DNA of 64,000 nucleotides from Deltaproteobacteria bacterium (GTDB lineage: Bacteria; Myxococcota; Kuafuiibacteriia; Kuafuiibacteriales; Kuafuiibacteriaceae), in the NCBI GenBank assembly GCA_040218735.1, contig JAVJQW010000023.1, positions 608,001 through 672,000 on the forward strand. The letters run 5' to 3'. The position numbers and the translations under genes are program-made. Of this stretch, positions 7,497 through 49,357 are shown piece by piece. Each line of letters opens with the position of its first letter. The stretch's first letter is position 1. The notes beneath the pieces were generated by a model that saw only the letters and a list, made by a program, of their open reading frames with translations, was not told the origin of the DNA and made no database searches.

Positions 7497-7800
7497 CCGC
7501 AAGCTACCTTGCAATACCATGACACATTTGTGCCAGACACCCGCGTATACATGAGACAGAAGGCACGCATGACATGGTCTACGCGCCGAGCCGGGAGTCG
7601 ATCGGAGGTCGCCGAAGCTAGAGGATCCCGCGGACCTGCCCGGGTTCAGAGCGACACGAAGCCGATGGGCCCTGTGGGAATCGAACCCACGACCTTGGGA
7701 TAAAGATACTCGCGAGGATCGACGCAAACAGCCGGAACATGTCCGGTTGTTCCCGGGACGGGTGGCGCCTGTGGCAAATGCGTGCCGAGCTTAGGGCCGG
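7497..7800. repeat. attP-like junction A: left arm + tRNA-Lys 3' core (7666-7701) + right arm
   Basis: Core matches 32068-32103; left arm closely resembles 13740-13895; right arm resembles 13954-14045 and 20563-20650. Confidence 0.85.
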
Positions 7801-7809
7801 CGCCTCAGA

Positions 7810-8085
7810 TCTGTCCCGCACCGCCTGATTGGCCTTCGCGGCTTCGATGTACGTGCAGATCTGGGTCGCCGACTTGTTCCCGACCGGCCCGGCAACGCCC
7901 GCGTCATCGAACAGCGTGATCCGGCGCCAGGCGAACATCGACACAGCCACTCCCTCCGCGGGAAGCGTTGCGATCCGCGCGAGTAACGCCGACATGTCTA
8001 GCTCCATGAACGCGGTTGTCGCGTGGCTCGTAGGGACGAGATTGATGCTACCGACGACGACTGTGTCATAGGCCGGCTGCGTCAC
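7810..8085 (-). pseudogene. Hypothetical gene fragment running into the island arm
   Basis: ORF 7618..8085 reads protein-like for about 90 aa, then runs through arm/att sequence. Confidence 0.3.
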
Positions 8086-8124
8086 CGCTCGGAATCCCAG
8101 CCGTCGGGGCAGCGCCAGATGACG

Positions 8125-8418
8125 TTATTCCAACGCCCCCTCGGCCTCGAGCCACGCGCGAAGCTCCGCCCGAACCTCGTTGGCCTCCCCCGGACGTCCC
8201 TCACCGAAGTGAATCCAACCTTCCCGGGGTCGCCAGGTCCGAAGGTACTCGGTGATTTCTCCGCGGATCGAAGCAGGGACCGCCGACCAGAGCACGGCGC
8301 GCTCCTCGGAGCCCGCGAGCACGCGCATCACCGCCCACTGGATTTCGTCATCGGTGTAGAGCCCCACATCGTACGCCGCGAGGATTGCCTTCAGGTCTTC
8401 GATCGTTGTCATCGTCAT
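8125..8418 (-). CDS. Putative immunity protein of the Rhs toxin at 8415..11650
   Basis: 97-aa ORF (MTMTTIEDLKAILAAY...) whose ATG overlaps the toxin stop (ATGA). Confidence 0.7.
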   Translation of the reverse strand: MTMTTIEDLKAILAAYDVGLYTDDEIQWAVMRVLAGSEERAVLWSAVPASIRGEITEYLRTWRPREGWIHFGEGRPGEANEVRAELRAWLEAEGALE

Positions 8419-11400
8419 CCACCGCGCATCTTCTTGACGAGCAGGTTGGCCACATCCCACGCCTGCTCGTGAAGGTTGTTGGCCCAGCCACCGTCCAACC
8501 GATCCGCGATCAGCGCGTTCAATCTCCTCACCTGTATCGCACCTTCCTTGTTGAACAGCTCGCGAAGCGCGTTGATTTCGTGCATCTCGTGCGCGATGTG
8601 GGCGACGATGGCTTCGTCGCTCGTGAGGAGCGACTCGTCGAACCTCACGGGCACACGTCCCGTTCTTTGATGAAGGAAGTCCTCCCAGGTCACCCAGTCG
8701 TCTGGAGCGAAGTCTCTCGTGCGCGTGAAGTACTCGGCCCTGGCGTCCTTCCGTGACCACCGTATGAAGCCGATCGCCAAATCGTCGCCGATCTCCACGC
8801 CGTAGGACTTGGCCAGCTCGAGTGCTTCCTTCGGGGTCCTCCTCACCCCACCTGGGTTGGGCCTGAAATCGAACGCGGGCGCGCGCGCTGCGCCGCCGAG
8901 CCGCGCGCCGCCGCGGAGCTTACCCGCCACGAAACCGAACGCAGCCCCCAACACCTTCGCGACCACTGCTCCGAGCACACCCATCAAGGCTCCGCCGGCC
9001 GTGTCCTTGGCGTACGTCTCCGCGGAGCTGACCTCGCCTCGTGTCGCGTCGTGCAGCGCTCGCATACCCGGCGCGGACAGGGCACCGCTGATCATGCCCT
9101 CCAGGATCAAGCTCCCCCCGCCGTAGGCCGCACCCACCTGACCGGCGGCCGCCATGATGGCCGAGTATCCGACGAGCTTGGCGTTGCCGGTCACGACATC
9201 GTCCATCGCCACATCGAGCCTACGGCCGGATCCGGTGGGCGCGCGTTGCACCTGTCCGATGCTCCCGGCCGCTCCGAATGCCATCCGCGCGCAGAAACTC
9301 TCGGGCGCTCCCGCCTCCGTGCAGACCTTGTATTGCGCCTCTGGCGAAAGTGGCTTGGCCTCCGCCGCCGGATCCGCGGTCGCGTTGGCCACGTGGTCCT
9401 CTCGCCCGTCCGCGTCTCTTCGTGTGACCGGGTTGTTGCCCATCGCGACGTACGCGCTCTTGGACGCGTCTTCGACGGGATCTCTCGACAACCACCGTCC
9501 GAGCCAACTCAAGTAGTAGCGAGCCTGGAACGCGTAGAACCCAGTCTCCTCGTCTCGCTCCTCTCCGGAGTACCGAAAACGTTTGGGTCCTGCGGTCAGA
9601 CCGGAAGCCGTCGCACGATACGAGGTCGACCCGAACGGGAAGTACTCTTCGTAGGTCAGCAGGGGAGCTTGCACCGAAGGTCCGACCTCGACGCCGCTCG
9701 AACCCAGATGATCCGTCAGCGGATAACGTGCGCGTGGCGCAGGTGCCATGGAGATACCGTTGCGAACGGTCGCCGTCTCGACGATCGCGATTCGCTCCGC
9801 GCCGTTCATCACGTGGAGGGTTTCGGTCTGCTCCTGATTCCCGCGACGATAGAACTCCCAACCGTCGAGGTACCGACGCTCTACGACCTCGGTCGTTCGT
9901 CGGACGATCTTTCGAAGACGCAGCCCGCTCTCGTCGTAGACATAGTACGCGTGCCCGCCCCCACCGAGGTCCACCTCGACGAGGCGATCGTCCGCGTCCC
10001 AACTCAGCGGACGCATCCCGACGACCCCAGTCATGTTCCCGTGGCCGTCGTGTGCGTAGGTGTCGAGGTACGTCGGACCGATTGTCGGGTCCACGTAGGT
10101 CGGATGGCTCGACGGGCTCCCGGGTGAGCTCGTCGCGACGAGGTGGTTCGAGTTGAGGGCGTACTGATGACGCCGGCGCCACGCCACCGAGACTCCGCGT
10201 CGGTGTGACGTCTCGAGGATGTTGCCGACGGCGTCGTATCGATAGCGCTCAACGTAGCGTTCCAGCGTCGACGCGTCGTTTGCGTGCGGGAGGCTTCGTC
10301 CAGGGGGGAGGCCGGCGCCGGGTTGCTGCCCCGGATGACAGCGTCCCTCGGCGCGCGTGAGCCGGTGGCGAGCGTCGTACTCGAAGCGGCGGTCGGCCGA
10401 TACGACCGCGTTGTCGAAGAACAGACGTGGCTGCGCTCCGTCGAGGATCGCCACGACGTTTCCGAACGGGTCGTACGTGTACGCGCGATCCTGAAGCAGC
10501 GTCCCGTTCGCCCGACGGCTCGTCACCCCGGCCAAACGCTGACTGTCGCGATCGTAGCTGTAGCTCGTCTCGACTTCGTTCCCGAGCACGACCTGCTCAC
10601 GGCGGCCGAGCGCGTCGTACCGCGACGACCGAAGGTAGGGGACGCGGCCACCGACGCCGTGGTGCTGTACTTCGATGCCTTCGAGCTGCCCCCCGACACC
10701 GTAGCGGTAGTGCGTCGTGCTCTGATCCGGAGCGCGCGCGGACACGACGCGGCCCAGCCCGTCGAGCTTGGACACCGCTCGGTACTCCGTGCGCTCCAGC
10801 GCCGCATCGGCGAGCGTCTCCAGCGCCGCCAGATCCGGCGCCGACGTCAGCGCCGTCCAATCCGCGCCCTGCGCCCACGTACTCCACACCGCCACCGACG
10901 CGGCTGCGTCGGGTGCGGCGCGGAGCCGTCGCGCGACTTCGAGTGTGTTGCCGTCGAAGTCTCGACGAAGCACACGCCGAGCTCCCGCGGCGTCGTACAC
11001 GGCGTAGGCGTGACCCACGCATCGTTGCGCGCGCGCGGTCGCCGTCGGGAGATCGCTGCCGTAGACGACGTGACTTCGGACGACCTCCGCGCCAGCACCG
11101 ACGCGCAGATGTCGACTCACCGGACGCCGTAGACGATCGTACGTCATGCGCCACGCGTGGCCCCGGCTGTCCCACGTGCGTGCGGGTTGCCCGTCGGTCG
11201 CGGGGAGCGTCCACCACGATCCGCCGTCGCACGTCGAGGCGGCCAGCGAACGCCCCAGGAGGTCATACGTCGTCGTCGCGCTCGTGTTGCCGCGCCCGTC
11301 GGTGACCAAGACCGGACGGCCCTCGAGGTCGAGCGTCGACGTCGTGGTGTGAAGGTCGGGCGCCGCGGCGGTTCCGTTATCCTCGTCGATGCGGAACGTG

Positions 11401-11650
11401 CGGCCGAGCGCGTCCACGTGCGCCGTCATCGGCGTATCGGCGTGGACCAATGCAAGCGTGCGCGCGCGCTGCTGCTCGGCGCCTCCCGCCGCCGCCGTTC
11501 GCTCCCAGTCGGAGCCCACGACGGTGTCCGAACGGTCGCGCGTCACGTTCGACCAGGTTCGGTAGTCGATGCGCTCCTCGGTCCCGTCGCAGTACTGCAC
11601 CCGAGCTCGACGCCCGATCGGATCGTAGTGGGAGACCGAAGCCGGACGTG
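8415..11650 (-). CDS. 5'-truncated Rhs/YD-repeat protein (Tc toxin BC-like shell) with C-terminal HEMHE metallopeptidase-like toxin tip
   Basis: YD repeats; core motifs DHLGS, YEEYFPFG, RFRYSGEERDEETG, GRWLSRDP, NNPVTRRDADG; tip SDEAIVAHIAHEMHE. The reading frame begins mid-domain (SHYDPIGRRARV) near 11650. Confidence 0.85.
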
Positions 11651-13086
11651 ACAGTTGGGAGCTCTACCGGCGCCGCGACGACGCGGGAGAGATCGAAGCG
11701 ATCGAGACGCTGCACGTCCACGACGACCTGCGCCGAGTCGCCCTCGTGGAGACGCGAACGCGCCGCGAGCGCGCGGTCGAAGCGACGCCCTCTCCGCGCA
11801 CCCGGTATCAGCTCGACGACCACCTCGGCAGCGCGACGCTCGAGGTGGACGCCTCCGCGCAGGCCCGGGTTCTGACCTACGAGGAGTACGGGCCCTACGG
11901 TGCCGTCACCTACCGCGCGACGCGAGGCGGCGTCGATCTGTCGCCGAAGCGCTACCGCTACACCACGAAGGAGCGGGACGAAGAGACCGGCCTCGACGAC
12001 TTCGGCCAACGCCTCTACGCGAGCTGGCTCGCGCGGTGGGTATCGGCGGATCCCGCGGGGCTCATGGACGGGACGAACGTCTACGCGTACGTACGAGGAT
12101 CGCCGATGAACCTCGTGGACCCGGATGGCCTGGAGGGCGACCTCCCGGTCACGGCCTACCCCGAGCCGCCCAAGGGCGAGGTCAGCGGCGACGGGATTCA
12201 CGTCTTCCCGCACCCCGCCGACGACGGGACGCTGATGTGGCTGAAGCGCGAGGGCGGTCAGACGACGGACGCCGCCACGTTTGCGTTCCTCAACGAGAAC
12301 TACAACGACATCCTCGCGCGGGTCGGCGGCGACGAAGACGTTGCGCGCCGGCTCACGGAGGCCGCGACGGCGTTCAACGACTACATCGAGAGCCGCCTCT
12401 ACGCAGGCGAGAACCCGGTCGACGCGCGGAAGCGCTGGCTCGACGTGAACCTCGCGGAGGCCGCGGTCCACGGGTTCTTCTTCGGCGGGGACCCATCGTC
12501 GCCGGACTACGACGACAGCCGCAGCCTGATCGCCCTGGGCTTCAACCTTCTGCCGACGGCGTTTGCCATGCTGGCCGGGATGCGGAGCCGGCCGCGCCGG
12601 TCGTCACGCCGATCGGCCCGCGTGGTGATGGAGCGTGCGTTCCGCACGAAGGAGGAGTCTCAGGCGCCGGACTCGCGCGGGCTGTTCAAGAACCTGATTC
12701 CGAAGGACAAACCGCAGAGGGTGGAGTTCCAGACCGCCCGAGTCGCCGACGACGGAACGGTCACGGGCTTGACGAAGGTCCCCGATCGCCCGGTCGAGTT
12801 CGTTCGAATGCCGGGCGGCGAGCTTCGAATGGGCCGAGGCGGACACATCGATCTGTCGAACGGCGACCCCGTGAAGTTCGCGGGGCTCATCGAGGTCCGC
12901 CGCCGAGCCGACGGTTCGGTGTACGTCCTGGACTGGAACAACGCATCCGGTCATTACCGACCGGGTGCGGCCTGGGCGCGCCAGGCTGGGCTCCTGATGA
13001 ACAAGTTCAACGATGCGTCGCGAGCCTTCGCGATGTTCCGCAACCCCAATGCGAAGGTCTACCGTCGTTCGCAGCTCGGGAGGTGA
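11650..13086 (+). CDS. Orphan Rhs core fragment with C-terminal toxin (H...AG...NxSGHYxP, Ntox43-like predicted RNase)
   Basis: YQLDDHLGS, YEEYGPYG, RYRYTTKERDEETG, PMNLVDPDG; tip GHIDLSNGDPVKFAG...WNNASGHYRP. The frame is Rhs-like from about 11650 (DSWELYRRR...ETLHVHDD), upstream of the tracked start at 11746. Confidence 0.85.
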   Translation, partial: DSWELYRRRDDAGEIEAIETLHVHDDLRRVALVETRTRRERAVEATPSPRTRYQLDDHLGSATLEVDASAQARVLTYEEYGPYGAVTYRATRGGVDLSPKRYRYTTKERDEETGLDDFGQRLYASWLARWVSADPAGLMDGTNVYAYVRGSPMNLVDPDGLEGDLPVTAYPEPPKGEVSGDGIHVFPHPADDGTLMWLKREGGQTTDAATFAFLNENYNDILARVGGDEDVARRLTEAATAFNDYIESRLYAGENPVDARKRWLDVNLAEAAVHGFFFGGDPSSPDYDDSRSLIALGFNLLPTAFAMLAGMRSRPRRSSRRSARVVMERAFRTKEESQAPDSRGLFKNLIPKDKPQRVEFQTARVADDGTVTGLTKVPDRPVEFVRMPGGELRMGRGGHIDLSNGDPVKFAGLIEVRRRADGSVYVLDWNNASGHYRPGAAWARQAGLLMNKFNDASRAFAMFRNPNAKVYRRSQLGR

Positions 13087-13487
13087 TGCAAATGGACGAG
13101 AACGAAGCCAAGCTGTTGGCGCGCGTGGCCGCTTGGGCCACGGCACAGTCCGGGCGCCCCGAGGCGCCCGAGGCGTTCCCGGACGAGATTCTCGAGCTCG
13201 CCACCGTCGCACGAGTGCGCTCGCTCCTGGGAATCGAGTTCGGCTACCTCCCGCGGATCGGTCTGCTCTTGCTGTTCGAGCACCTCAAGCCCCCGTACGC
13301 CGAGCTCCGCGACGCCTTTCACGAGGGGCTACGACGGGGGGACGTCAGCGCCATCAAACACGACATTCGCATCCTCGGGCCACACATCCAGCGCCGTGAT
13401 ATCGAGCGGATCCTGGAGGACATCGCGGCGACCGATAACGATCACGCGGACGGCATCGTCTACTGGCTGAACCGGACCCCGCTGTAG
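13086..13487 (+). CDS. Putative immunity protein of the Ntox43-like toxin
   Basis: 133-aa ORF (MQMDENEAKLLARV...) whose ATG overlaps the toxin stop (TGATG). Confidence 0.7.
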   Translation: MQMDENEAKLLARVAAWATAQSGRPEAPEAFPDEILELATVARVRSLLGIEFGYLPRIGLLLLFEHLKPPYAELRDAFHEGLRRGDVSAIKHDIRILGPHIQRRDIERILEDIAATDNDHADGIVYWLNRTPL

Positions 13488-13739
13488 TCCGCCGCGTGAC
13501 TGCCTACGCGACGAGCTCGTCGTGTCAGAGCCCGCAAGGTTGTTCGGCGCGTAGCGCGGGAGCGGGCGCTGGGCGTACCTCGATGACCACGTCGGCGCCC
13601 TCCAACTTGCTACCCGCTGGCGTGGTAGGTCAGCGACGCGACCGGCGGGCCTTGAATCTGTGTCTTCGAGGTCGGCCGGGGGGCGAAGTCGGGCCCGAGG
13701 CCCTCACGGGCCCCCGCCGGCCGCCGCATCACGTCCGGC

Positions 13740-14045
13740 CCGCAAGCTAGCTTGCAAGCTTGTGACACATTTGTGCCAGACACCCGCGTATCCATGAGAC
13801 AGATGGCACGCATGACACGGTCTACGCGCCGAGCCGGGAGTCGATCGAACGTCGCCGAAACGAAAGGGCCCCGCGGACCTGCGCGGGATCAGAGGGGGTC
13901 GCCACCCGAATGGGCCCTGTGGGAATCGAACCCACGACCTTGGGATTAAAAATACTCGCGAGGATCGACGTAAGCATACGGAGTATATGGAGTTGTGACT
14001 TTGAACGGGCGGCGCCTGTGGCAAATGTGTACCGAGCTTCGGGCC
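13740..14045. repeat. attP-like junction B with 43-bp tRNA-Lys core (13911-13953)
   Basis: Exact copy of 32068-32110; arm motifs TGTGACACATTTGTGCCAGACA (13761) and TGTGGCAAATGTGTACCGAG (14017). Confidence 0.9.
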
Positions 14046-14130
14046 GACGGGCTTCGATCGGTCCCGCCCACCGTCCGCACTGTGCAGAGCGCATGGGCGC
14101 GTCCGCGTCCGGTTGGTTTTCGGACGAAGT

Positions 14131-14520
14131 TCGATAATCGGACGTTGGCGGACGCCACGGTCCTTACGCACACGACCGCACGCCCGGCACGGCGCTCGCG
14201 TCCGACGGACCGGTGTCCATCGCATGTACCGCCTACGTCCCAGGGACGAATCCAGCCGACGCCCTCGACCGGACCACCGGGTTCCCTGAGCCGCCAACTC
14301 GAGTTGCCGCTCGCTGGCTGATCCCCAAACGGCCTCGCACCATTCTTCAACGTGTCATCGCGTTCATGGACACGTGCGTTCAGCTCCTCCCAACGCGCCA
14401 GCCACAGACTCAACAACAGCCTCAACCGAGAAGGCGTGGCACGCCTTTGGTCGGGATCCATGCCGCCCACCGTCCCCCGCGCCATAGGAATCCGCGGATC
14501 TGCGCTTGAACGCCATATCC
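14131..14520 (+). mobile_element. Internally deleted ISCR/IS91-like element (MITE-like)
   Basis: 5' part matches 20746/25131 and is fused at about 14240 (CAGG microhomology) to the 3' part matching 22184-22468; ends in oriIS-like TGCGCTTGAACGCCATATCC. Confidence 0.85.
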
Positions 14521-14656
14521 GGCCTGAGAGCCCCTCTTGTCCTTCCTATTCCCTTGAGTTTTAGACCATGATTGTATCAAGTATCATCGCGCGTTGGTCG
14601 CGCTGTTAGACTTCTGATTTCTAAAGCCACGCGAGCCCCTATCCTTTCCTCCATGC

Positions 14657-16651
14657 TTGAAGGCAATTGTCGTGCGACTCGAAAGTATCACGCTATCAGG
14701 CTTCCGTTGCTTCGGACCGGAGGCAATCACAATCCCTGTCAGCGCCGAGATCACGACCATTGTCGGCCCCAACGCGGCCGGCAAGACTGCACTGCTCCAG
14801 GCGCTCGCCAAGCTGTTCGGGGTCAGCCGGGCACAGCGCACCATTCATCGGTCGGATTTTCACATCGCCGTTGACGATGACCCAGACGATCGTGAGGCCA
14901 AGAACCTCGTCATCGACGTGCTCGTCGCGTTGCCCGAGCTCAAGGGCGGAACGGCAACGCCCGAAAGCGTTGCACCGTCGTTTCGGCATATGCTGATCGT
15001 GCGCAAAAACAAGGCGCCGGTCTGCCGTCTGCGCCTTGAGGCGCGATGGGAGGACGATGGAACCGTTGAGGGCGAGGTCTCGCAGGAACTTTTCTGGGTC
15101 GACACGCTCGACGATGATCCGAAGGACGACAAGAAGCATGCCACCGCCGCCGCCGATCGCGGCTTGATCCAACTCTACTACACGCCGGCGAACCGCGATG
15201 CTGGCGCACAGGTTCGAGCGACGGCCGGCGCCTTGGCCGCGCGCTTACTCCGCGCGATCGAATGGTCCGACGAGGCCCGCGAGAGCGTCGAGGAAGCGAC
15301 CGAGAGTCTCTCGGACGCCTTCGAGGGAGAAGCTGCGATCACGGCGATTGGCAAGGCGTTGCAGAAGCGCTGGGCGACGCTTCATGACGAGACGGTCGAC
15401 ACCAAACCGCGCTTGAGCCTGGTCAGCCGGCGGTTCGAGGAAGTGGTGAGCAAGATCGCCGTTATCTTCGAACAGGGCCCGGACGGGCGCGAGCGCGGAC
15501 TCGACGCACTCAGTGATGGCCAGCAATCCTTGTTCTACTTCGCTTTGGTCGCCGCCGTGTTCGACATGGAGCGGCAGGTCGCGACAGGTAAGGTAGACGG
15601 GTTCGACAAGGATCACTTGCGTATTCCGGCGTTGTCGGTCTTCGCGCTTGAGGAGCCGGAAAACCACCTGTCGCCATATTTCCTCGCGCGCATCGTTCGC
15701 CAGGTTCGCTCGCTCACTGCGGGGGGCAGCGCGCAGGCGCTCGTCACCAGCCATTCGCCGGCGGTGCTTAGCCGAGTTAAACCAGTCGAGGTGCGCTATT
15801 GCCGGTGTGACCCCGAAACCCGCGAATCCTCGGTCAAGAAGATCAAGCTTCCGACTAACAGGAGCGAGGAAGGCAAGTTCGTTCGCGGCGCGATGATGGC
15901 TTTCCCAGAGCTCTATTTCGCGCGCTTCGTATTGTTGGTCGAAGGCGATTCCGAGCGCGTCGTGCTCCCGCGTCTTGCCGAAGCGCTTGATCTACTGATC
16001 GACCCGGCGTTTGTCGCGATCGTCCCGCTCGGAGGTCGTCACGTCCAGCATTTCTGGCGCCTGCTGTCGCAACTCGACGTTCCCTACGCGACCTTGCTCG
16101 ACCTTGACCTCGGGCGGGCAGGAGGCGGCTTCGGGCGCATCAAGACCGCGATTGAAAAGCTGATCGACATGGGCGCCTCTAAGGCTGAGTTGCTCAACAC
16201 CGACAAAGGTATGTTGACCGATGCGGAGTTTGCAGCCATGCACACTTGGCAGGATGCGAAGAATCGCGAGCTCTTGAGCGGGTGGATCGACTGCCTCAAG
16301 GAACACGGCGTGTACTTTTCGGAGCCGCTCGATCTCGACCTGGCGATGCTCGCCGCCTTCGCCTCCGCCTACGAGGCGGTCATTCCTAAAGGCGGTGGCC
16401 CGAAAAACTCCAAGAAAGCCGCAGAGGCTGTGCTCGGAACCTCGGGGCCGGGAACAACGCTCTATTTGGGCCCATACAAGGATTACCCGCAGCTCTTTTC
16501 GGCCTATCGCTATCATTTCCTGACGCATAGCAAGCCCGTGACACATCTGGCGGCGCTCACGAAGATCAAGGACGGCGAGTTGAAGGCGAACATGCCGCGG
16601 GTGTTGGCGGAGGTTCTCGCTCATATCACGAAGCACCTCAGGCGGGATTGA
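14657..16651 (+). CDS. gajA: OLD-family ABC-ATPase/TOPRIM nuclease (Gabija GajA-like)
   Basis: GPNAAGKT Walker A, LSDGQ, LEEPENHL, TSHSP; TOPRIM VLLVEGDSE and LLDLD; coupled to a UvrD helicase. Start may be GTG 14672. Confidence 0.85.
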   Translation: MKAIVVRLESITLSGFRCFGPEAITIPVSAEITTIVGPNAAGKTALLQALAKLFGVSRAQRTIHRSDFHIAVDDDPDDREAKNLVIDVLVALPELKGGTATPESVAPSFRHMLIVRKNKAPVCRLRLEARWEDDGTVEGEVSQELFWVDTLDDDPKDDKKHATAAADRGLIQLYYTPANRDAGAQVRATAGALAARLLRAIEWSDEARESVEEATESLSDAFEGEAAITAIGKALQKRWATLHDETVDTKPRLSLVSRRFEEVVSKIAVIFEQGPDGRERGLDALSDGQQSLFYFALVAAVFDMERQVATGKVDGFDKDHLRIPALSVFALEEPENHLSPYFLARIVRQVRSLTAGGSAQALVTSHSPAVLSRVKPVEVRYCRCDPETRESSVKKIKLPTNRSEEGKFVRGAMMAFPELYFARFVLLVEGDSERVVLPRLAEALDLLIDPAFVAIVPLGGRHVQHFWRLLSQLDVPYATLLDLDLGRAGGGFGRIKTAIEKLIDMGASKAELLNTDKGMLTDAEFAAMHTWQDAKNRELLSGWIDCLKEHGVYFSEPLDLDLAMLAAFASAYEAVIPKGGGPKNSKKAAEAVLGTSGPGTTLYLGPYKDYPQLFSAYRYHFLTHSKPVTHLAALTKIKDGELKANMPRVLAEVLAHITKHLRRD

Positions 16652-18558: not shown

Positions 18559-18688
18559 CGAGGAATCAATAGGAAGAGCAAACAGGCCTGCTCGAGTCGC
18601 CGCTGTGTCAGCGTAGATGCGCCTCGACCTGACCCCGAACCTGGGGGTGAGCGAGGCTTAAAGAAGGGGCGATCACTGGATGGTACCC

Positions 18689-18797
18689 CCGACCGAGCAG
18701 GCGCGGCACGCCCTCGGTCGGGATCCATGCCGACCCCGTGTGCGGCTCCACCCGGGTCCCAGAGGCAACTGCGGAGTTGCGCTTGAGCGTCCTATCC
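18689..18797 (+). mobile_element. Solo oriIS-like end of the ISCR/IS91-like element
   Basis: Resembles 26684-26794: CCGACCGA..TCGGTCGG hairpin, GGATCC, CCCAGAGGCA, TGCGCTTGAGCGTCCTATCC. Confidence 0.7.
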
Positions 18798-22468: not shown

Positions 22469-22725
22469 GGCATCTTCGTGCTCCCGGTGATCTTCGAGCG
22501 GTGGGGCACGGCGTCGACCGAGCCCGACTGATGCGTCCGCTCGTCTGGTGTTTGTTGTCGGCCGCGCTCTTCGGCGTGCCGACCCGGGTTGCTCTACGTC
22601 GGCGCCGCCGTGGTCTTCGGCGCCCTCCGCGATCGCGGACGACTCGCCGCAGCCCTGCAGAATCGAGCCCGTCTCCGGGCACGGTGGCAATGAATCCTGG
22701 AGGCAACCGCGGCGTCGAAGGCCCC

Positions 22726-23676
22726 ATGTCACTGTCCCATCTCCTGAAGGCCAAGGACGTCCGAGCGCAGCTGAACCGAATCACGCCCGACTACCGTCGT
22801 ACGCTCTCTGCGACGACGAACGTCGAGAAGTTGGGCGGCCCCCATCAGCTCATCGGCACCGCATTCGACTACGCGCTTCGATTCGAGATTGGACGACGAT
22901 GCCCGTCCGCGCGCGGCGAGCGTTGGGTAGCCGAGAATGGCGTGAGGCGTCTGGAGCTTGGTCGAGCCTTGGCGGGGACGGCCACGCTCCTCTCGACGCC
23001 CAAGCTGTCGGGGCCTTCACGAGACCTGGACCGCCTCGCCCGAAGGGCGCGGCGATGGATAGACGCAGCGCGCGAGCAAGTACCGACCTATCAGAGTATC
23101 CGAGCCGTTCGACGCTCCGACCTGACTGTGCTCGCCGAACTGACGCTAACGCTCGCGAGACTCGACGTGGTGGCTCGTTGCGGCGATCCCAGCGCCCTGC
23201 GCAGCGAGCCGAGTGCAGAGGAGCGCGAAGAGCTCGTCCGACTGCTGGAGGTCGTTCCTTTCCAGCGACTCGCCCTCGCCGGGGACGTCTTCCTCAATCC
23301 AACGTTCTCGAGCGCCTCGGAAGCGGTCGGCGGCGCGGACGCGGATCTCGTCATCGACGGACGCCTCCTGGACATCAAGACGCTGGCGAATTCGTTCATC
23401 GAGCGACCAGCTGTCCACCAGCTCCTGGGTTATCTGATGCTCGCGCGTCATGCGCGACGCCGCGACACCGCCTTTCCTCGGATTCGATCGGTCGGCTTGT
23501 ACTTCGCGCGACAGGCCGCCATCTGGGAAATCGACGTCGAGCCCATCGTGAGATCAGAGACATTCGCGGACGTCGAACGCTGGTTCGCCGCACGTGCCCG
23601 CTTGGACCAGCCTGCTCCCCGAGCCCGGAGTCGTCCCCGGGCCGACCGCGTTGCGCCTGACACGACCGAGCGCTAG
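22726..23676 (+). CDS. PD-(D/E)XK nuclease-like protein
   Basis: IGTAFDY, LNPTF, GGADADLVIDGRLLDIKT, QLLGY, GLYFARQ; C-terminal part of ORF 21832..23676. Confidence 0.75.
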   Translation: MSLSHLLKAKDVRAQLNRITPDYRRTLSATTNVEKLGGPHQLIGTAFDYALRFEIGRRCPSARGERWVAENGVRRLELGRALAGTATLLSTPKLSGPSRDLDRLARRARRWIDAAREQVPTYQSIRAVRRSDLTVLAELTLTLARLDVVARCGDPSALRSEPSAEEREELVRLLEVVPFQRLALAGDVFLNPTFSSASEAVGGADADLVIDGRLLDIKTLANSFIERPAVHQLLGYLMLARHARRRDTAFPRIRSVGLYFARQAAIWEIDVEPIVRSETFADVERWFAARARLDQPAPRARSRPRADRVAPDTTER

Positions 23677-23688
23677 CATTTGCGACGC

Positions 23689-23762
23689 GCGGGGGTAGCT
23701 CAGTGGTCAGAGCACCGGACCAATAATCCGGGGGTCAGGGCGTTCAATTCCTCTCCTCCGCA
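23689..23762 (+). tRNA. Atypical or pseudo tRNA, anticodon AAT (Ile), probably derived from a CAT tRNA
   Basis: Cloverleaf: acceptor GCGGGGG/CCTCCGC, D arm GCTC/GAGC, anticodon arm CCGGA-CCAATAA-TCCGG, TTCAATT loop with a bulged T stem; C33 instead of U33. Confidence 0.7.
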
Positions 23763-23769
23763 TCACGAC

Positions 23770-25050
23770 ATGCTGAAATGGCAGGCGGCACATGAGGCTT
23801 GGCAGTCGTTCATGGAGCGACTTACGACGGTTCAGCGCGAGCTTCATTGTTCGTATCGGAATGCGTGGTTTCGAGGCCATCCCGATGCGAACTACAAGCT
23901 AACACCATCGATTCTTCGCCAGGCCCCCCCGCCCGGCCTCGGCGAACTGTCGAAGATGAACAGCCACCGCGGCCCGACATCTGAAGAACTGCGCCGCCCC
24001 AAACCGATGGTCATCGATGGTCTCGAGCCCGTCGACGGGCCGCCGGCGGAGGCTAACTCCGCGAAACGCCACCGGGTCGTCGACGAGCGCAAGCTCGACT
24101 CGACAGAGAAGTTCCTCGAAACGGATGTTCGTAGCGATCTCCGGAGCACGCGTGCAGCACTCGCCAACGCTCTCAACTCGATCGAAGCGTCGTCGGCCGA
24201 GCTCCGTGAGATCAGCCAGCAACTCCAACAGAAACGGGACCGCATCTTCCGGGACGTGCTCATCGCTCGAAGGCGCGACCTCAAGAACAGCATGAGCGAC
24301 GCTCGAGGCACCATCGCGTCTGAGCGCGATAGAATCCTCGTCCTCCGGTCGATCTGCTACGGAGAGCGTGACACGCTGCTGGCCTTTCGCCACCGGAGCA
24401 GCGCGGTGCTCGCGGAGTCGTCATCTTGGGTCACGCTTGCCGCGATGCAGCACCACGGCGTTCCGACAAGGCTCCTCGACTGGACGACTTCCGCGGGCGT
24501 TGGCCTTTACTTTGCCGTGAAGTCGATCCGGGAGCGAATGATCTCGAACCGCGGCTCTATCGAGAACTGGCTCGAGTCGAACTGGGGTGAAATCGACCTT
24601 CGGGAGTTCGACGGTTTGCCTCTTCCGTGCCTTTGGGTTCTCAATCCATACTTCCTCGCTCGGCGCACAACGGGTCAAAATAGAATCGAGGATCCAACTC
24701 TCCGGCCCGACCTCGACTACCTTCTGGCGTTCCACGAGAATCTTTCGTGGCCTTACAACGGTGCCGTCCCGGTCCTCATTCCGTGGCGGTCCGAACGGAT
24801 CTTCGCGCAACGCGGCGTCTTTACGGTTCATGGCCGAGACACACGACCATTGGAGTGTCAGGTGCCGGTCATGGGTGGAGCGGACGCACCACTTCTCGCC
24901 TCCGTCCCCTTGGGTCTCGAGGCGGCCGTGTACGCCGTCCGGCATATCGTCCAGTTCATTGGGCTCGATCAGTTCACGGTATTCCGAGGCGAGGACGACC
25001 TCGGCACATCGATACGGGATCGACACATCGCGCGTGTGGAAAGCGGTTGA
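23770..25050 (+). CDS. FRG-domain protein with a long coiled-coil insertion
   Basis: WFRGH...LTPSI, MQHHGVPTRLLDWT...LYFAV, LWVLNP, ERIFAQRGVFTVH. Confidence 0.9.
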   Translation: MLKWQAAHEAWQSFMERLTTVQRELHCSYRNAWFRGHPDANYKLTPSILRQAPPPGLGELSKMNSHRGPTSEELRRPKPMVIDGLEPVDGPPAEANSAKRHRVVDERKLDSTEKFLETDVRSDLRSTRAALANALNSIEASSAELREISQQLQQKRDRIFRDVLIARRRDLKNSMSDARGTIASERDRILVLRSICYGERDTLLAFRHRSSAVLAESSSWVTLAAMQHHGVPTRLLDWTTSAGVGLYFAVKSIRERMISNRGSIENWLESNWGEIDLREFDGLPLPCLWVLNPYFLARRTTGQNRIEDPTLRPDLDYLLAFHENLSWPYNGAVPVLIPWRSERIFAQRGVFTVHGRDTRPLECQVPVMGGADAPLLASVPLGLEAAVYAVRHIVQFIGLDQFTVFRGEDDLGTSIRDRHIARVESG

Positions 25051-25130
25051 ACTACCAACTGCATCCGAATCTCCAGGACTTCTCCACCCCGCCTCCAAGT
25101 CTTCGCGCCGCCGGACGGCGATACTCCTCA

Positions 25131-26794
25131 TCGATAATCGGACGTTGGCGGACGCCACGGTCCATTCGCACACGACCTCACGCCCGGCACGGCGCTCGCG
25201 TCCGGCGGCCCGGTGTCCATCGAATGCACGGCCTACGTCCCACGAGATCCGCGCAACGGTCCCCTTCATCCTCTCGTGAAGGCGGCCTGGCCTCGCTTCG
25301 TCGAGCAACTCGAAGCCTCCGGAGGCACCGTCCCGAAGTTCGTGACCGCCGCCTTCGATAGCTACCTCAGGTGCGGCCTCCCCGAGGAGGGCGGCTTCAT
25401 CCGCCTCGGGTGCACCCAGTGTGGCAACGAGCGTGCACTTCCGTTGTCCTGCAAGCGCCGAGGAATCTGTCCGAGCTGCGGCGCTCGTCGCATGCACGAC
25501 CTCGCGCAACGTCTGGTCGAGCGCGTCCTCCCCGACGTCCCGATTCGTCAGTACGTCCTATCACCGCCCTCCGAGCTCGTGGGCCTGCTCGGCGCTCGAA
25601 CCGAGCCCTTGTCCGCGCTCGCGCGCGCCTTCGTTCGCTGCATGTTCGACGCGATCGGGCGGCGGGTCGATGCGGGCGTTGCCGCGCACCCCGGTGCGAT
25701 CGTCGTGGTGCAGAGATTCTCCAAGACGCTCGCGCTCTTTCCTCACCTTCACGTGCTCCGCATTGGACGGAGCGTACGTCGAGGTCGGCGACGAGCTCGA
25801 GTTCCGCGTCGATCCCGGCCGCACACCCGACGACCTCCTCGACCTCGAAGACGAGGTGGAGCGTCGATTCTCGCGATGGCTCGAACAGCATGGCTATCTC
25901 GAGGAGGACGACCAGGACGAGGAGGCCCTCGACGGCTGGTTCGGCCCCGCGGCCTACGACACCGTTCAAGGACACCGCCCGCCCGCGAAGCCTCGCGACC
26001 CCAACCGCTTTCAGGTGCACGCCCGTGTTCGCGTAAGAGCCGGTGATCGCCCAGGCCGCGAACGACTCTGCACCTACGTCGCTCGACCGCCAGTGGCGGA
26101 GGCTCAGATCGAGCCCCTCGATGAAGACCGAGTCCGCCTCTGGCTCCGCAATCCGGGTCGAAGTCTCGCCAGCAGCGTCGTACTCACCTCGATGCAGCTC
26201 ATTCGCCGCCTCGCCTGGCAGGTTCCGCCCCCCAACCTCCACCTCGTTCGCTACGCCGGCATCCTCGCCCCCGCGGCTCGACTACGTCAACGCGTCGTAC
26301 CTGCGGGACGGGTCGCCATCAAGGCCGCATGGTTCGGCGAGAGGAAGTTCGAGCCACTCGTTCCCGTCCCGTCCCGGACCGCCTGGGCGAGGCTGCTGGC
26401 GAAGGTCTACGAGATCCACGCTCACCAGTGCCCCAGATGCCACGCTCCCATGCGCCCCATCGCCGCGGTCCTTCCACCACAGGCCCGCGCCTGGATCGAA
26501 CAGGGACGAATCCTGCCCATGCCCTCGACCGGACCACCGGCCCTCGTGAGCCGCCAACTCGACCTGCCGCTCGTTGCGTGATCCCAAACGGCCCCCGCAC
26601 CCATTCCTCAATGCGTCGTCGCGTTCATGGATACGTGCGTTCAGAGCCGCTCAACTCGCCCCCCGCCACCGCAAAGACGGCCTCCGACCGAGCCGGCGCG
26701 ACACGCAATCGGTCGGGATCCAAGCCGACCGAGGGCGTGCCGCTCCCCACGAGTCCCAGAGGCAGCCGCGGAATTGCGCTTGGATGCCCTATCC
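25131..26794 (+). mobile_element. ISCR/IS91-family element, second copy (transposase 25213..26581, single +1 frameshift near 25758)
   Basis: ORFs 25213..26046 and 25421..26581 join into one transposase with an intact Cys cluster, HLH and YVARPP; oriIS-like end 26775-26794. Confidence 0.9.
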
Positions 26795-26833
26795 CGCTTC
26801 CTGGCGATTTCAGTGAAGTACGGCGGGCAACCA

Positions 26834-29800
26834 TCAGCCTTTGGAAAGGTCGCTTGGCTTGGGAAGGCAGCCTCGAACGACGACCACGCCCAGGAGGACT
26901 GACAATCCCTCGCCGACGGGAGGAGCAACTGCGCGCAGGCCGATGTCGTTGACAACGAGCCCGGGAGCGGCGGTCTTCTGGCTGCCGTCCAGCACACAGA
27001 GCGCACCAAAGCGTCGATCGCTCGCAACCACATACTGCGCCGTTTGGCCGAAGTATTTTGTGCACGAATCCAGGCTGAAGGCTGAATCGTTGTTCTCAAC
27101 TTTTAGTTCGAGCCGGATCTTCCGAAACGAGAGATCAGTTTCGCCTCCCCCAGCAGCAGGATGCTCTTCAAGCTCCCCGCCGATCCGCGGATCGAGTCTC
27201 AAGATATCTCTCAATCGTTCCTGGAACTCACGCTCCAGGATCTGTTCGTCAAAAAGGTCGTCCTGCAGCGCCTGTTGAGCCAGACGACAGACGCCGGTCA
27301 TCAAAACCAAGAAGTCGCCAAGCTCGCGGTCTGAGACTCCGGCAAAACTTCGGGCGTTGTTCCGAAGGTCGAGAAGGGCGTTGTCGACTCCCGCGTAGCC
27401 GCTGATCGGGTTGGTTGCAGGATCATGACTCTGCAAATAGAGCTGACGCTGTCCCACCACCTCCAAACGATCGGGCGCCTGCTCGAATCGCGCTCGATAT
27501 GAGAACTGGAGGGGCCGAGACGGCAAACTCTGCCCGACCTTCAATAGCAACCTGCCCGTCGCGGTCAGCCTATAGGGTGCCGCCCCCGTAGAGGGTCTAT
27601 CGATCTCGAACACCGGTAGCTGACAGACCTCGGGCGGTTCGACTGTAATCGGTTCAAGCACGAGCTTGCCATTGCTGGGGTTCCACCGGGAGACCGACAC
27701 GTCGACTGAGAGGTCTTGAACCAGATCGACCGTCACCGTATGTGGTTCCTGAACGGCTGCATCGTCTAGTCTAAATTCTGTGAACACAACGGTGGTCGAC
27801 TCGACGGACTCATGCTCCTCCGTTTTGCGTCTCGGGACCTGTGGCGTCACGCGACTAGTTATGGGCAAAGGGAGACTCAGCAACGAAAGCGATCCGGCAA
27901 GAGCGGCAACATCCTCAACTTCTTCAATTGAAAGAATCTGCTCGATGTGCGGCTTGAATTGAACGCCCCGGGCTTCGTCGTCGCCATCTCGCGCAACATC
28001 CTTGGCGTTGGTCTTGGCGGCCTTGAGGAAACGATCCGCATCGACTTCTGCACTGCGAACCGCATGTCCCCAACGCAGCAGGTCAAGAAAGCAGTGCAAA
28101 AGCGCGCGGTAGCGACGGTATACTTGAGCCGCGCTAGTCTCGCCAACCTCGGAAATCTCCTCGCCGAGTCCTGTGACCGCGTCCGACAGATCCGAGAGGA
28201 CGTCATCACGGCCAGCAGCCTTCCTGAGAAGGCTAACGATTTCAGCCCGGCGGGGGGATATGGTTAAAAAGGCCCCGCTTCTTCTCTCGCCGCTCATCCT
28301 CTCTCCGATATTTCTCTGCGATCAGGCGCACCTCTTCCGCGCTCTCAACCAATCGGGCGTTATCCCCCTCTGACGCGGCTATCTCGATCTCGATGGCCTT
28401 TCGGAGCACCGAGGCCCGCAGAGTTAACAACTTGTCCCATTCACTGGATTCCAGGCGGCTCAGCACACGGTCAATCATCGCAGCGGCCGTCGCGTGCATC
28501 CCCGCGTCGCATAGGATCTCACAGAGCTCTTCGGTCCATCCGGTGCCGAATTCAATCAGCTCGTCTGATCGCTTCACAAATGTCGCGTGCAAAGGTCTGA
28601 GGTGCTTGGACGGCACCGCGCGAAGCATCTGAATGACGTCATCGGACTGGTAGGAGCTAACGCGGTCTTGAACTGCCAGATGTATGAGCAGTCTCGGAAA
28701 CCGCGGGTCGGCCTTCATGTCGCCCCAGTACCATCTTAGGATCTCGAGCGCTTCGTATGCCTCCATTCGGAAGCACACTCCGACAACGTATTTCACGAGA
28801 TTTTGGTGCAGCTCCACATCCGTTTTTGAGCTTAGGCGAAAAGATGCGCGGATCGCGTACTTCAGACTGGAGTTGGGCTGAGGATTCTTCCCGTAAGTTG
28901 CGAGCCAATCGATCGAGGACCGGAGTGCTCGCGGCACGAACTTCTGCGGCAGCGTTACTTCGAGCAATGCCTGGAGAGCCCTCCCATGTACTGCCACGTA
29001 AGAGTCAGACAGAAGCACGAGGAACGTCTCATGGACGAGATCGGGCAGATCGTCTGATGAGCCTGCGATCGCCGTGTACGCTTCGACGCCGGCGGCCCTG
29101 ACAGCAACAGACGGGTCGAGCATTGACGCATAGATTTGTGGAAGAACGAGGCGCAGTCCGTCAGGCGATCGTCCGCACGCCCCCAGCGCCCGAACCAAAG
29201 TTGAACGAAGCATCCGGTCCTTCTCATGCACGCTCGGAAGCATTTCAATGAGCGCTGTCCCACACTTGGCGGGAAACCTAGAGGCGAGTTGCCCAATCAG
29301 CTGGGTTACATCTCGAAGGGCCGCTGAAAGTCGTGTCCGCTCATTCTGCTTCTCTAAAAGGGTCAGCGCATTCAATTTGGGCTCTAGAAGGGGGCTGCTC
29401 GGCTTCTCCAGCTCGGTAGCCATTAGTGCGGTGGCGCCAAGCAGATGCTCGATCGATTCGCTTGCTTCTTTGAGGAGGCGACTTTCTAGGTGGGAGAGGG
29501 ATCGGGCTGCGTCCGATAGGCGCTCGTCTCTCGGCAGGCTGACCACTGTTGCGATAAGACGTTGAAGGCAGACGCGCTCCGGTTCGACATCCCGATCTTC
29601 CGCTTCGCGACGAGCAAATCGAAGCACCTCCGTGTACGCCCCGAAGAGCTTCTCTCGTCCATCCTCCGATGCAGCGCTTATCGCTTCCTGCAACAGCTCA
29701 TCTGCTTCAGAGGGCCGTTGCCTAAGCGCCTCTACAATTGCCCTCACCGCGTGCTCTGAGACGCGGGCTCCGTAGCCGTGTCGGCTTTCCGTGAATTCAA

Positions 29801-30803
29801 CGCTCTTCGCCAGGACCGGAATGGTTTTTGCGATTGCCGTTGGCTTGTGAGCGAAGAGCGGACGGAGGGCGCGAGCAGCCGCCGCTCTGGTCCAGTCGCT
29901 CTGGCTAGAGAGCGCCCAGGAGAAATAGCTTTCGAGCGTATCCGGAAACAGATCGTAGGCCTTGAGCAATGCAGCCGGACGGGAGTCCAAGCGTTGTCCG
30001 GGAATCAGCTCCGTCGGCGAGGCGATTTCACATATGGATCCCATCGCAGCACGAATCAACTTGGAGTCGTCGGCGGTCATCTCTGACGCGGCTATTTCCG
30101 CGGCCACCGTGGAGCTGTGGCTGGCCCCAAGGTAGACAAGACAAGCTTGGCCCAGGCGGCGCCTGTCGTCTGCGACCAGGTTCAGCACTTGCAGCGCCGG
30201 TTGCGCCTTGGCGGGCTCATCCGATTGGAGCAATGCGTAGAGATGATCCTGAATGTCGCGGAAGGCACCGGGTGCGGCCTGTGCTGCGGCCAAGAGCAGA
30301 GCCGATGCCTCCTTAGTCCCGGTTTCGTCGAGCGCAGAGACGAGATCGAGGACACCTTTCACTCCAGGCGAAGTTTGATCACGCTGCTTGTTTCGTAGCT
30401 CCTCTCGGACTTCTCGTTCCTGCTCCCTCTTTGTTTTCTCTGCCTTCTGACGCTCCTGGCCCAGTTGCTGGTGCCTGTCCCGTTCTCCAACAATCTCCGA
30501 GATGTTTGGAAACCGGACAGGATTTCGATGTTCGCACCCAACGCAGTTCTTGTCGTGAAAGTCCAAAGCAATCCGCCGGAAATCCATCGAGTGGCTGCCC
30601 TTGTGCGCTGCATGTGGACACTGGACGAAGCCCATAAATATTGGCAGCCCGGTCTGCTGCTCAACGAGCCCCATTCCTGCGAACTGTGAGCGCTCGACAG
30701 ATAGGTGAGAGCACCAGTTGTGAAGTAGGTCCCTCGTCCGCTCGTTCCGTCGACCGATCTCGATCGCATCGCGGATTCCCGCTTCTGTGTCTCGCGATCC
30801 CAT
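26834..30803 (-). CDS. Large (~1320 aa) Cys/His-cluster + HEAT-like repeats + C-terminal PD-(D/E)XK nuclease, split at G6 28252-28257
   Basis: N-terminal CPHA..NCVGC; helical repeats (VAVRAAGVEA, VAVHGRALQAL); C-terminal EREFQ..GGGETDLSF..LELKV..QTAQY. Removing one G fuses ORFs 28242..30863 and 26834..28297. Confidence 0.7.
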
Positions 30804-31009
30804 GCTCTTCGTCTCGGACTTTCCGAGACATGCGAACCTAGTCGCGGGTCGGCCGCGTGGCAACGCTGGTCCCCTCTGTTTTCAGGCGTTCAAATGAGCA
30901 GCGGCCCGGGCCGAGTCGGATGCTCAGCGATTCTCCTGCCGCACGTCTCCGCGACAAACGACCTCGTAGTCCTCCGACGGCACGACGCTCCCATTCAGCA
31001 CCGGTTTCG

Positions 31010-31950
31010 AGCAGCCCGCGCCACGCTCGGACGAGCGCTAGCCACGTCGGTCGCCGCCCTCACCGAGCTGTCGCGCGCCGGGCGGCGTAGCGAGGCCACC
31101 GTCGACTTCCATCGCCGTAAGGCCGGACACCTCGTTCGCATCTTCGAGCAGGGCGGCACTGCCCCGTACCCGCTGAAGACGCTGACGCCGCGTGAGGTCG
31201 ACGCCTACATCTCTCAGCGCCGCGCCGAGGGAGGCCGAGAACACGATCAGCAAGGAGCTCGTGGTCCTTCGGAAGGCTCTGAAGTTAGCGAGGCACAACG
31301 GCGAGTGGGCGGGCGACGTCAACGCCGTGCTGCCGGTCGGCTTCTCGCCAGCGGTACCGCCCACGGGAACGGTTCCTCACCGCAGAGGAGGTGACGGCCT
31401 TGCTCGGGGAGCTGCCGGCCGACCGCGCGGCGCGGGTCGCGTTCATTCTGGCGACCTCCTCGTCATGGGGCCCGACCGACCGAGCGCGGCGGGCCGACGT
31501 CTCCGCCGACCTCTCGCGCGTCCACATCCGACGTACCAAGCGCAGCACCCGAGACCGCGTCGTACCGATCGTCCTCCTGGCGCACCGCGAGCTACTCGAG
31601 TTCGCCGTGCGCCACGCCGGGGGCACGAACGGCCTGCTGTTCCAGCGGTGGAGCAACCACGGTCGTGACATCAGGGCCGCCTGCAAGCGAGCAGGCATCG
31701 CCCCGTGCTCCCCGAACGACCTGCGCCGGACGTTCGGCGTTTGGCTTCGCGCCTCCGGCGCGCCGCCCGATCTGATCGCCCCTTGCATGGGGCACAAGGA
31801 CAGCACAATGGTCGAGCGCGTCTACGGACGACTCCCGCCGGAGCTGCTGGCCGCGCGCATCCAAGACGCCGTGTCGCAGTCCTCGACCGCTTCTACGCTG
31901 CCTGTAGGCCTCCAGGACTGTGTCAAACATGTACCAGACACATGCGATTC
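31010..31950 (+). pseudogene. Tyrosine recombinase/integrase, frameshifted and 5'-truncated
   Basis: SAM-like VDAYISQRRAEG / NTISKELVVLRKALK; catalytic domain TKRSTRDRVVP, PNDLRRTF, MGHKDSTMVERVY; spread over three frames (shifts near 31230 and 31350); adjacent to the tRNA. Confidence 0.85.
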
Positions 31951-32067
31951 AACGGCTCCAGAGAGACGAATGAGACCGATGGCACCGTCTCGCAACCGAG
32001 CTTGCAAAGACCGAAAGACGAAAAGATCCCGCGATGCTGCGCGAGATCAGAGGGGGTCGCCACCCGA

Positions 32068-32140
32068 TGGGCCCTGTGGGAATCGAACCCACGACCTTGG
32101 GATTAAAAATCCCCTGCTCTGCCGACTGAGCTAAAGGCCC
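32068..32140 (-). tRNA. tRNA-Lys (TTT)
   Basis: GGGCCTTTAGCTCAGTCGGCAGAGCAGGGGATTTTTAATCCCAAGGTCGTGGGTTCGATTCCCACAGGGCCCA folds as a cloverleaf; CCA not encoded. Confidence 0.95.
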
Positions 32141-49355: not shown

Positions 49356-49357
49356 CG

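Follow-up and report, generated by a model that had tools for sequence, protein, structure and literature searches.

How did genes for defence and toxins come to stand in a row of units that are separated by copies of one half of a tRNA gene, and can these units still move? We addressed this question in a stretch of 64,000 nucleotides from a Deltaproteobacteria bacterium (GenBank assembly GCA_040218735.1, contig JAVJQW010000023.1, positions 608,001 to 672,000 of the forward strand), which is called the window here and corresponds to C9:608001-672000 in our naming of contigs. A first-pass annotation, made from the letters of the window, had described the region beside its tRNA-Lys gene as an integron-like array of mostly integrase-less conflict cassettes. 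We consider it probable that in this region four or more related integrative islands (units A to D) stand in tandem, which were serially inserted at tRNA-Lys(UUU) and then decayed, in the manner of cis-mobilisable elements (CIMEs). Repeated site-specific integration into a tRNA-Lys gene that is restored each time, as that annotation had also proposed, is the best account of the repeats.

Layout of the array

The array is built on direct repeats of the 3' part of the tRNA gene, which bound units A, B and C and are referred to as attachment (att) cores. The units are named by their distance from the tRNA.

32068-32140, minus strand: intact tRNA-Lys(UUU) (anticodon ttt; ARAGORN; Rfam 70.9 bits), whose 3' 43 nt are core copy 1 (attL)
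20563-32067: unit A
20520-20562, plus strand: core copy 2 (43/43)
13954-20519: unit B
13911-13953, plus strand: core copy 3 (43/43)
7705-13910: unit C
7666-7704, plus strand: core copy 4 of the tRNA-Lys 3' half, more eroded than the other three (38/39, one indel; repeat family D7)
Left of 7666: unit D
4540-7489, no strand assigned: remnant of unit D with a serine hydrolase gene and FG-GAP fragments, its far-end att absent

The 3' 43 nt of the tRNA gene, reaching through the anticodon loop, occur as exact copies at 13911-13953, 20520-20562 and 32068-32110, and a match to this core was found in none of 100 shuffles of the window. No further core copy was detected by BLAST in the whole 11.6-Mb genome, and the only other matches (56 nt, 78-82%) lie at two ARAGORN tRNA genes, tRNA-Lys(ctt) and tRNA-Asn. 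The core-to-core spacings of 6245, 6609 and 11548 nt give units of 6.2, 6.6 and 11.5 kb. Units B and C have att cores at both ends and contain no integration or transfer genes (no PF00589 match and no tblastn match to the integrase pieces described below), and none of the units was seen to carry genes for conjugation or mobilisation. By repeat search, junction alignment and Pfam, the core coordinates, the unit sizes, the arms on both sides of the cores and the single integrase all agree with the first description. A chronological order of the units, also suggested there, is plausible, as the most distal core is the most eroded one.

Left arms and the integrase

To the left of the core, about 40 nt including a GC-rich hairpin are common to all four copies in the junction alignment. 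Over their longer extent the left arms are of two types, type 2 (7495-7651 vs 13738-13894, 89%) and type 1 (20399-20501 vs 31946-32048, 95%).

7490-7665, plus strand: left arm type 2 at junction D/C, remnant of an integrase 3' tail (89% to 13738-13894), in frame into the core and without a stop from the HDTFVPD motif on
13733-13910, plus strand: left arm type 2 at junction C/B, with the same start point as the D/C arm
20399-20519, plus strand: left arm type 1 at junction B/A, made up of the final ~40 integrase codons (95% to 31946-32048), in frame with the core
30894-32067, plus strand: integrase pseudogene of unit A (PF00589, 2.2e-10), whose last ~120 nt are left arm type 1

When the D/C and B/A arms were translated in the frame of the core, they ran free of stops into the core peptide and carried integrase-tail motifs. 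Judged by these frames, the left arms represent integrase genes of which the final 40-57 codons are left, and the distal units therefore once carried integrases. The stubs are ~120 nt long in B and 175 nt in C and D, and a 77-nt stub lies beside an insertion sequence (IS) in G015, a genome from another genus of the same family. The earlier idea of minimal non-autonomous distal cassettes thus stands in part: these units lack an integrase and keep att cores with both flanks, but they were not born integrase-less, since their left arms are integrase remnants.

The only Phage_integrase domain of the window lies at 31376-31828 and is one of 13 found in the genome with the Pfam model; no other tyrosine-recombinase domain was detected in the window even when this model was read through stops. 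Among NCBIfam models none matched the unit A integrase, which was recognised by PF00589 only. A tblastn search of the window with the intact G015 homologue recovered residues 60-140 (58% identity), 138-180 (81%) and 178-429 (57%) in three frames, whereas residues 1-59 had no counterpart and the core-encoded stretch lay in yet another frame. Because the gene is in three pieces in three frames and lacks a match to residues 1-59, it is a pseudogene. A second assembly (run X1) is identical to the window over 26737-31978, with 0 differences, and the breaks therefore cannot be put down to a single assembler. No paralogue exists in this genome by tblastn with the three integrase pieces, which find unit A only. 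With its only integrase broken and no paralogue at hand, this genome cannot move the units now. In addition, 30 small frames near the junctions were screened for an excisionase or helix-turn-helix protein, and none of them had any Pfam match at E<=0.05.

It was also observed that the frame of this integrase family crosses the att core before it terminates within the tRNA gene (locus L060 of G015, 5375-6673; window, 31391-32134). As the frame runs through the core, the last ~14-20 integrase residues are encoded by the complement of the tRNA, and the junction arms can be read as datable integrase stubs.

Right arms and the IS91-like element

About 110 nt to the right of the core are common to all three internal copies, and the copies at 13911 and 20520 remain alike beyond this arm into an IS91-like element (13906-14240 vs 20515-20855), with 86% identity between 13906-14111 and 20515-20720. 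This shared far-end backbone indicates that units A, B and C are sister elements rather than unrelated islands at one tRNA.

7705-7816, plus strand: right arm of unit C, shortened (repeat families D15/D16; alignment)
13954-14097, plus strand: right arm of unit B, 86% match to the unit A side
14098-14542, plus strand: internal-deletion derivative of the IS91-like element, 445 nt, both ends kept (14098-14240 vs 20713-20855, 93%; 14241-14393 vs 22184-22336, 98%)
18668-18819, plus strand: solo right (3') end of the IS91-like element (repeat families D8/D9; alignment)
20563-20712, plus strand: right arm of unit A, found also at C42:9558-9720 without a core
20713-22490, plus strand: IS91-like copy 1 (Pfam Y2_Tnp and Zn_Tnp_IS91), its Y2 transposase broken over frames 3/1/3
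25098-26816, plus strand: IS91-like copy 2, its transposase in frames 3/1/2/3, 93% to the C42 copy

In units A and B the core is followed by about 150 nt and then by the IS91-like element, so that an IS91-family gene stands at the integrase-distal end. PF04986 and PF14319, the Y2/HUH transposase and its N-terminal zinc-binding domain, were matched by both window copies and by an intact copy on another contig, C42, where the transposase is an open frame of 435 aa; both window transposases are frameshifted. In copy 1 the transposase is split by a ~79-nt insertion near 21805-21883. This insertion belongs to a short dispersed repeat, for which BLAST gave about two dozen matches spread over at least 15 contigs of this genome, and may be a miniature inverted-repeat (MITE-like) or repetitive extragenic palindromic (REP-like) element. 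The 150 nt upstream of the C42 element are the right arm of the window, starting ~10 nt past the expected core end, with neither core nor left arm. The conserved right arms had been taken as arms of the cassettes; as they are continuous with the IS91-like element and occur on C42 without a core, they appear to belong with this element.

The IS91-like 3' end is present eight times in this genome, as copies or fragments, and twice in that of its only congener (G001), and the element is found in 2 of 20 family genomes. The 3' end is conserved in the 7 aligned copies, with hairpin-forming repeats, and the 5' end varies from copy to copy. The target of IS91-family elements is a tetranucleotide (GTTC/CTTG); no target motif is common to the sites beside the 3' ends of the aligned copies. 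The 3' ends lie at 14542, 18819, 22490 and 26816 in the window and at 3409, 5029 and 11360 in locus L001 of C42. A co-directional gene starts within 19-115 nt of three of the four window ends (GajA, the PIN-domain gene and the frame at 22548). This arrangement recalls insertion sequence common region (ISCR) elements, which abut captured genes, and is less clear on C42 and on contig C57.

Comparison with related genomes

In all eight family loci that were fetched, tRNA-Lys is followed by the right-flank genes known from the window, and the fetched stretches contain no additional copy of the core. When the DNA downstream of the tRNA in these relatives was compared with contig C9 by tblastx, no synteny with the left flank of the window was found at family level. 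The G001 assembly is 75% complete and consists of 1480 contigs. It matches window 1-4510 at 91% and then runs on into a gene that is kept here only as its first few dozen bases. The right flank and a type-1 arm are found at tRNA-Lys of G001 (84-86%), and the contig ends at the arm; none of the array cargo was detected at the nucleotide level in this 75% complete assembly. From this comparison, the region from ~4540 to 32067 is variable, its content differing between two species of one genus.

The left boundary bears on unit D; the first-pass annotation had expected a terminal attR left of the window. Unit D has lost its far end, and no far-end att is present. The homology to G001 ceases near 4510-4540, within the truncated gene. 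It was observed that window 4500-4560 holds the first few dozen bases of a gene for a Cys-rich secreted protein, which is intact in G001, and that the two sequences diverge beyond this point. The divergence marks where, on the outer border of the island region, sequence was deleted or replaced.

Apart from this genome (G000) and G001, the arms occur in none of the 20 family genomes, and pattern scans of public collections gave 0 hits for the right arm in genome contigs and 0 for the left-arm/core junction in metagenome contigs. The layout itself recurs in G015, where a gene for a TIR-domain protein and the intact integrase homologue adjoin tRNA-Lys, the latter as a 433-aa frame that ends inside the tRNA. 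Another G015 contig contains two further core copies 8.1 kb apart with fragments of DDE transposase and no integrase between them, and one of these two copies has a 77-nt integrase-side arm with 96% identity. A search for related loci with the G015 integrase returned only proteins of 26-27% identity, plus G015 itself.

At the level of the phylum, the integrase family was found in 42 of 401 sampled genomes. A tRNA lies at the 3' end of the integrase gene in 13 of 15 fetched loci (12 tRNA-Phe, 1 tRNA-Asn). Nine of these 13 contain at least one extra tRNA copy of 27-48 nt, and three have two extra copies and thus form tandem arrays; two of the three (L099 and L100) show no integrase match at E<=0.1 between the cores. 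The tblastn alignments of the tRNA-Phe relatives likewise reach into the tRNA. Since the G015 homologue and 13 of 15 loci adjoin tRNAs and 9 of 13 carry extra tRNA copies, we conclude that this integrase family targets tRNA 3' halves. Among the 15 loci, nearly all shared stretches of at least 300 nt consist of the integrase genes and the adjoining tRNA, apart from brief extensions next to these in L098/L100 and L101/L104 and a stretch of 509 nt in L102/L106, and no shared cargo unit was evident. In four of six arrays of the tRNA-Phe relatives, an exact word of 18-23 nt occurs in both arms, 69-97 nt to the left and 54-79 nt to the right of the core, and these words look as arm-type integrase sites would. 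In the window, the left and right arms have only a 9-mer in common in this geometry, which may be due to chance (for a 9-mer match between two 260-nt stretches, the estimated chance is roughly 0.2 per comparison).

Probable serial accretion and decay, and alternative explanations

The observations can be arranged into the following course. A tyrosine integrase whose frame enters the 43-nt att core would have inserted each island into the 3' half of tRNA-Lys. Following the known model, every newcomer would have restored the tRNA and displaced the older islands outward, and the resulting hybrid junctions would have the core between an integrase-side and a far-side arm. The integrase genes of the older units were then deleted down to the 120-175 nt of 3' tail seen at the junctions, and the last integrase subsequently decayed by the frameshifts described above. 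The IS91-family element at the far end of A and B, together with its fragments, also decayed in place; earlier it had probably contributed to the import or shuffling of cargo modules. The frames of the defence and toxin genes have stayed open, presumably under selection.

Several points weigh against this course. First, neither an unoccupied site nor an array with only some of the units is seen in a sister genome, and the sole congener is fragmented and breaks at the arm. Second, the order of the units has no independent confirmation, as the X1 contigs break at the cores and IS ends. Third, by tblastn and Pfam in the window, units B-D have no integrase remnant beyond the short tails. Fourth, C and D are truncated at one point, ~175 nt left of the core, with 89% identity; such a common truncation is not predicted by independent decay and suggests that an already integrase-less unit was copied. 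Finally, the right arm may be either a true att arm that was taken along by an IS overrunning its 5' end, or the 5' end of the IS itself.

The common truncation would be expected if the array were an active system, in which the distal units are non-autonomous, are selected to keep a complete attP-like junction and are excised, reshuffled and transferred by a cognate integrase in trans, in the way known for the CR2-sul2 unit of GIsul2 and for CIMEs, as a reusable library of defence and toxin genes. At all three internal junctions at least 110 nt are retained on each side of the core, and arrays with an integrase only in the tRNA-proximal unit recur (G015, L099 and L100). The type-1 arm that G001 keeps, without the cargo at the nucleotide level, would fit turnover, and experiments described in PMC9376610 have shown that an att-flanked unit with an ISCR element but no integrase of its own moves in an integrase-dependent way. 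We nevertheless judge such an active system unlikely: a functional cognate integrase is absent from this genome, the arms are what is left of integrase genes, differ in length and are restricted to G000 and G001 in our searches of 20 family genomes and two public collections, only the possibly fortuitous 9-mer is common to the left and right arms, and no excisionase-like gene was found among the 30 small frames. Trans-mobilisation of the distal units is possible in principle, because C and D share a truncation point and a related genome has the same layout. If distal units can be mobilised, the logic known from resistance genes would extend to defence systems in soil bacteria.

A still more doubtful extension is a two-tier capture platform at tRNA-Lys in this little-sampled myxobacterial lineage, where integrase-less units with a complete attP-like junction would be moved and reordered by any cognate integrase present and the IS91/ISCR-like element would load defence modules (Gabija, FRG, PIN) beside its 3' end. 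If true, this would provide a library of conflict-gene cassettes that needs no resident integrase.

The repeats might instead have been made by the IS91-like element, if rolling-circle transposition that overran the 5' end had carried the arm and tRNA fragment along and spread att-bearing segments into an array. The C42 copy bears ~150 nt of right arm upstream of its transposase gene, the side that the IS91/ISCR model predicts to be co-mobilised, and both the number of 3'-end copies and fragments here (eight) and in G001 (two) and the cargo genes that closely follow three of the four window ends are in line with such spreading. However, the C42 copy stops before the core and has no left arm, and junction D/C contains no IS91 sequence beyond the arm, which makes this origin of the repeats very unlikely. 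Furthermore, two features are those predicted by integration, namely a repeat boundary that falls on the tRNA 3' end and left arms that consist of integrase tails, and the element occurs in only two of 20 family genomes while G015 has an array, so the layout occurs without this IS.

Mis-joining of near-identical junction repeats, with a wrong order or number of units, would fit the X1 contigs, none of which bridges a junction, but is scarcely credible given junctions that differ by 5-20% with distinct flanks, a contig of 781 kb, and the presence of all unique segments in X1. The latter comparison rests on contigs of one public run, in which every unique segment of the array is found at a similar depth of 20-30; the depth differences (20 vs 27-30) track GC content and contig averaging. 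Four joints in X1 sit at repeated arms or IS ends with short sides and are for that reason uninformative on excision.

We therefore return to serial accretion followed by decay, under which, to judge from its gene content, the array in this genome is a fixed defence island whose distal units fit the CIME definition. These units could be moved only if a cognate integrase came from outside. The locus is a clear and well-delimited case of a defence island built serially at one tRNA and then frozen, in which mobility genes rot while anti-phage and toxin genes remain. It goes a little beyond the textbook case in its datable integrase stubs and in the IS91-family element that lies beside the att site and between cargo modules, as may be compared with GIsul2.

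Comparison with known systems

Successive accretion of mobile islands with loss of mobility is a known way for defence islands to grow. In the ICESt1/ICESt3 model, CIMEs are described as elements that have lost their integration genes, keep att at both ends and form a stack with an element that entered the target gene's 3' end later (PMC5704250). Their course is given in three steps, namely integration, decay and new integration (PMC5704250). The array resembles CIMEs in its units without integration genes, in the att sites at both ends and in the tyrosine integrase, here a pseudogene, beside an intact tRNA. Unlike CIMEs, it has no conjugation or mobilisation genes that could be seen, it resides in a myxobacterial host, its newest integrase is dead, and cis-mobilisation is only hypothetical here.

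The closest single precedent is GIsul2, which is described as an integrase island that has an internal att and bears an IS91-family CR2 element on its far side, and whose integrase excises and integrates the integrase-less CR2-sul2 unit (PMC9376610). The same source uses terIS for the 5' end and oriIS for the 3' end of IS91/ISCR elements. In both loci an IS91-family gene lies at the end away from the integrase, and a sub-unit without an integrase is marked off by an internal att. They differ in target and cargo (guaA and drug resistance in GIsul2, a tRNA and defence genes in the array), the integrase and both local transposases of the array are broken, and the array has three internal att copies against one. 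Owing to the GIsul2/CR2-sul2 precedent, the cassette idea of the first-pass annotation is mechanistically reasonable, although it is not new in kind.

The term integron-like does not hold. The array does share with integrons an ordered series of units that are separated by recombination sites. Unlike integrons, it has no IntI-type platform integrase, attI, attC-type sites or common promoter; its units are multi-gene, 6.2-11.5 kb long and occupied on both strands, and they are bounded by the 43-nt tRNA core and arms of 110-175 nt; and the single tyrosine recombinase of the array, which adjoins the tRNA, is part of unit A and thus not outside the cassettes. Tycheposon-type tRNA islands of Prochlorococcus are described as growing by successive integrations that push older elements outward and leave partial tRNAs and fragmented integrases (10.1101/2020.12.28.424599). 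The integrase family and host of the array differ from theirs, and the likeness drawn here is one of description.

Cargo of the units

The cargo had been called nearly all toxin or defence-like, which is correct for units A-C but not for unit D, where the serine hydrolase and the FG-GAP fragments are not related to conflict.

Unit A
22548-23660, plus strand: open frame of 370 aa, possibly not a gene (unmatched in Pfam, PADLOC and NCBIfam, no Atlas lead)
23689-23762, plus strand: atypical tRNA-like gene, Ile(AAU) (ARAGORN; Rfam tRNA 54 bits)
23770-25050, plus strand: FRG-domain protein, candidate defence gene (PF08867, 1.3e-17; PDC-S15, 1.5e-28)
26834-30863, minus strand: Olokun-like pair (OloA-like 28242-30863, OloB-like 26834-28297; GC 57-60%)
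Unit B
14657-16651, plus strand: GajA, OLD-type ATPase with TOPRIM domain (PADLOC 3.8e-247; Pfam AAA_21/AAA_15/OLD-like TOPRIM)
16648-18558, plus strand: GajB, UvrD-like helicase (PADLOC 2e-225; Pfam UvrD)
18838-19953, plus strand: long PIN-domain protein, 371 aa (PIN_3, 1.3e-06; Atlas neighbours in PIN_2/PIN_3 clusters, 0.95-0.96)
Unit C
8415-11600, minus strand: RHS fragment, 1061 aa (YD repeats PF05593, 7.4e-13; RHS core aa 653-732, TIGR03696, 8.8e-19)
11746-13086, plus strand: orphan RHS tip, 446 aa (RHS core aa 48-129, TIGR03696, 4e-22)
Unit D
4760-5983, plus strand: beta-lactamase-family serine hydrolase (Pfam; all NCBIfam scores below curated cut-offs)
6033-7384, minus strand: frameshifted FG-GAP fragments (Pfam)

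The defence frames are open and score strongly, whereas every mobility gene in the array is broken. Unit B encodes a Gabija system: GajA and GajB are adjacent and co-oriented, overlap at stop and start, and are near full-length on both profiles. The pair in unit A is named Olokun-like because its PADLOC scores are moderate (OloA 1.3e-17, profile 17-428 of 596; OloB 1.1e-29, profile 55-436 of 556), with the order A then B on the minus strand. The two RHS fragments of unit C lie head-to-head and are both apparently truncated at the N-terminus, and their C-terminal regions match no family. The score of the unit D serine hydrolase is far under every curated beta-lactamase cut-off of NCBIfam.

The tRNA-like gene Ile(AAU) lies 8 nt upstream of the FRG start codon and has a C at position 33 and an imperfect T stem. 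It matches host tRNAs in at most 56 of 74 bases, and neither of two distant homologous FRG loci in the phylum has an adjoining tRNA.

Other candidate islands

On C42 (L001/L002), a 23-nt repeat of tRNA-Asn at 16028-16050 lies 7 kb from the tRNA-Asn gene at C42:23072-23144. It brackets the start of a teneurin/RHS-like gene and may indicate a further island linked to a tRNA. The 13 genomic PF00589 matches all lie on contigs other than C42. In the window itself, a second low-GC stretch at 49000-54500 (56-57% vs about 68%) may likewise be another island.

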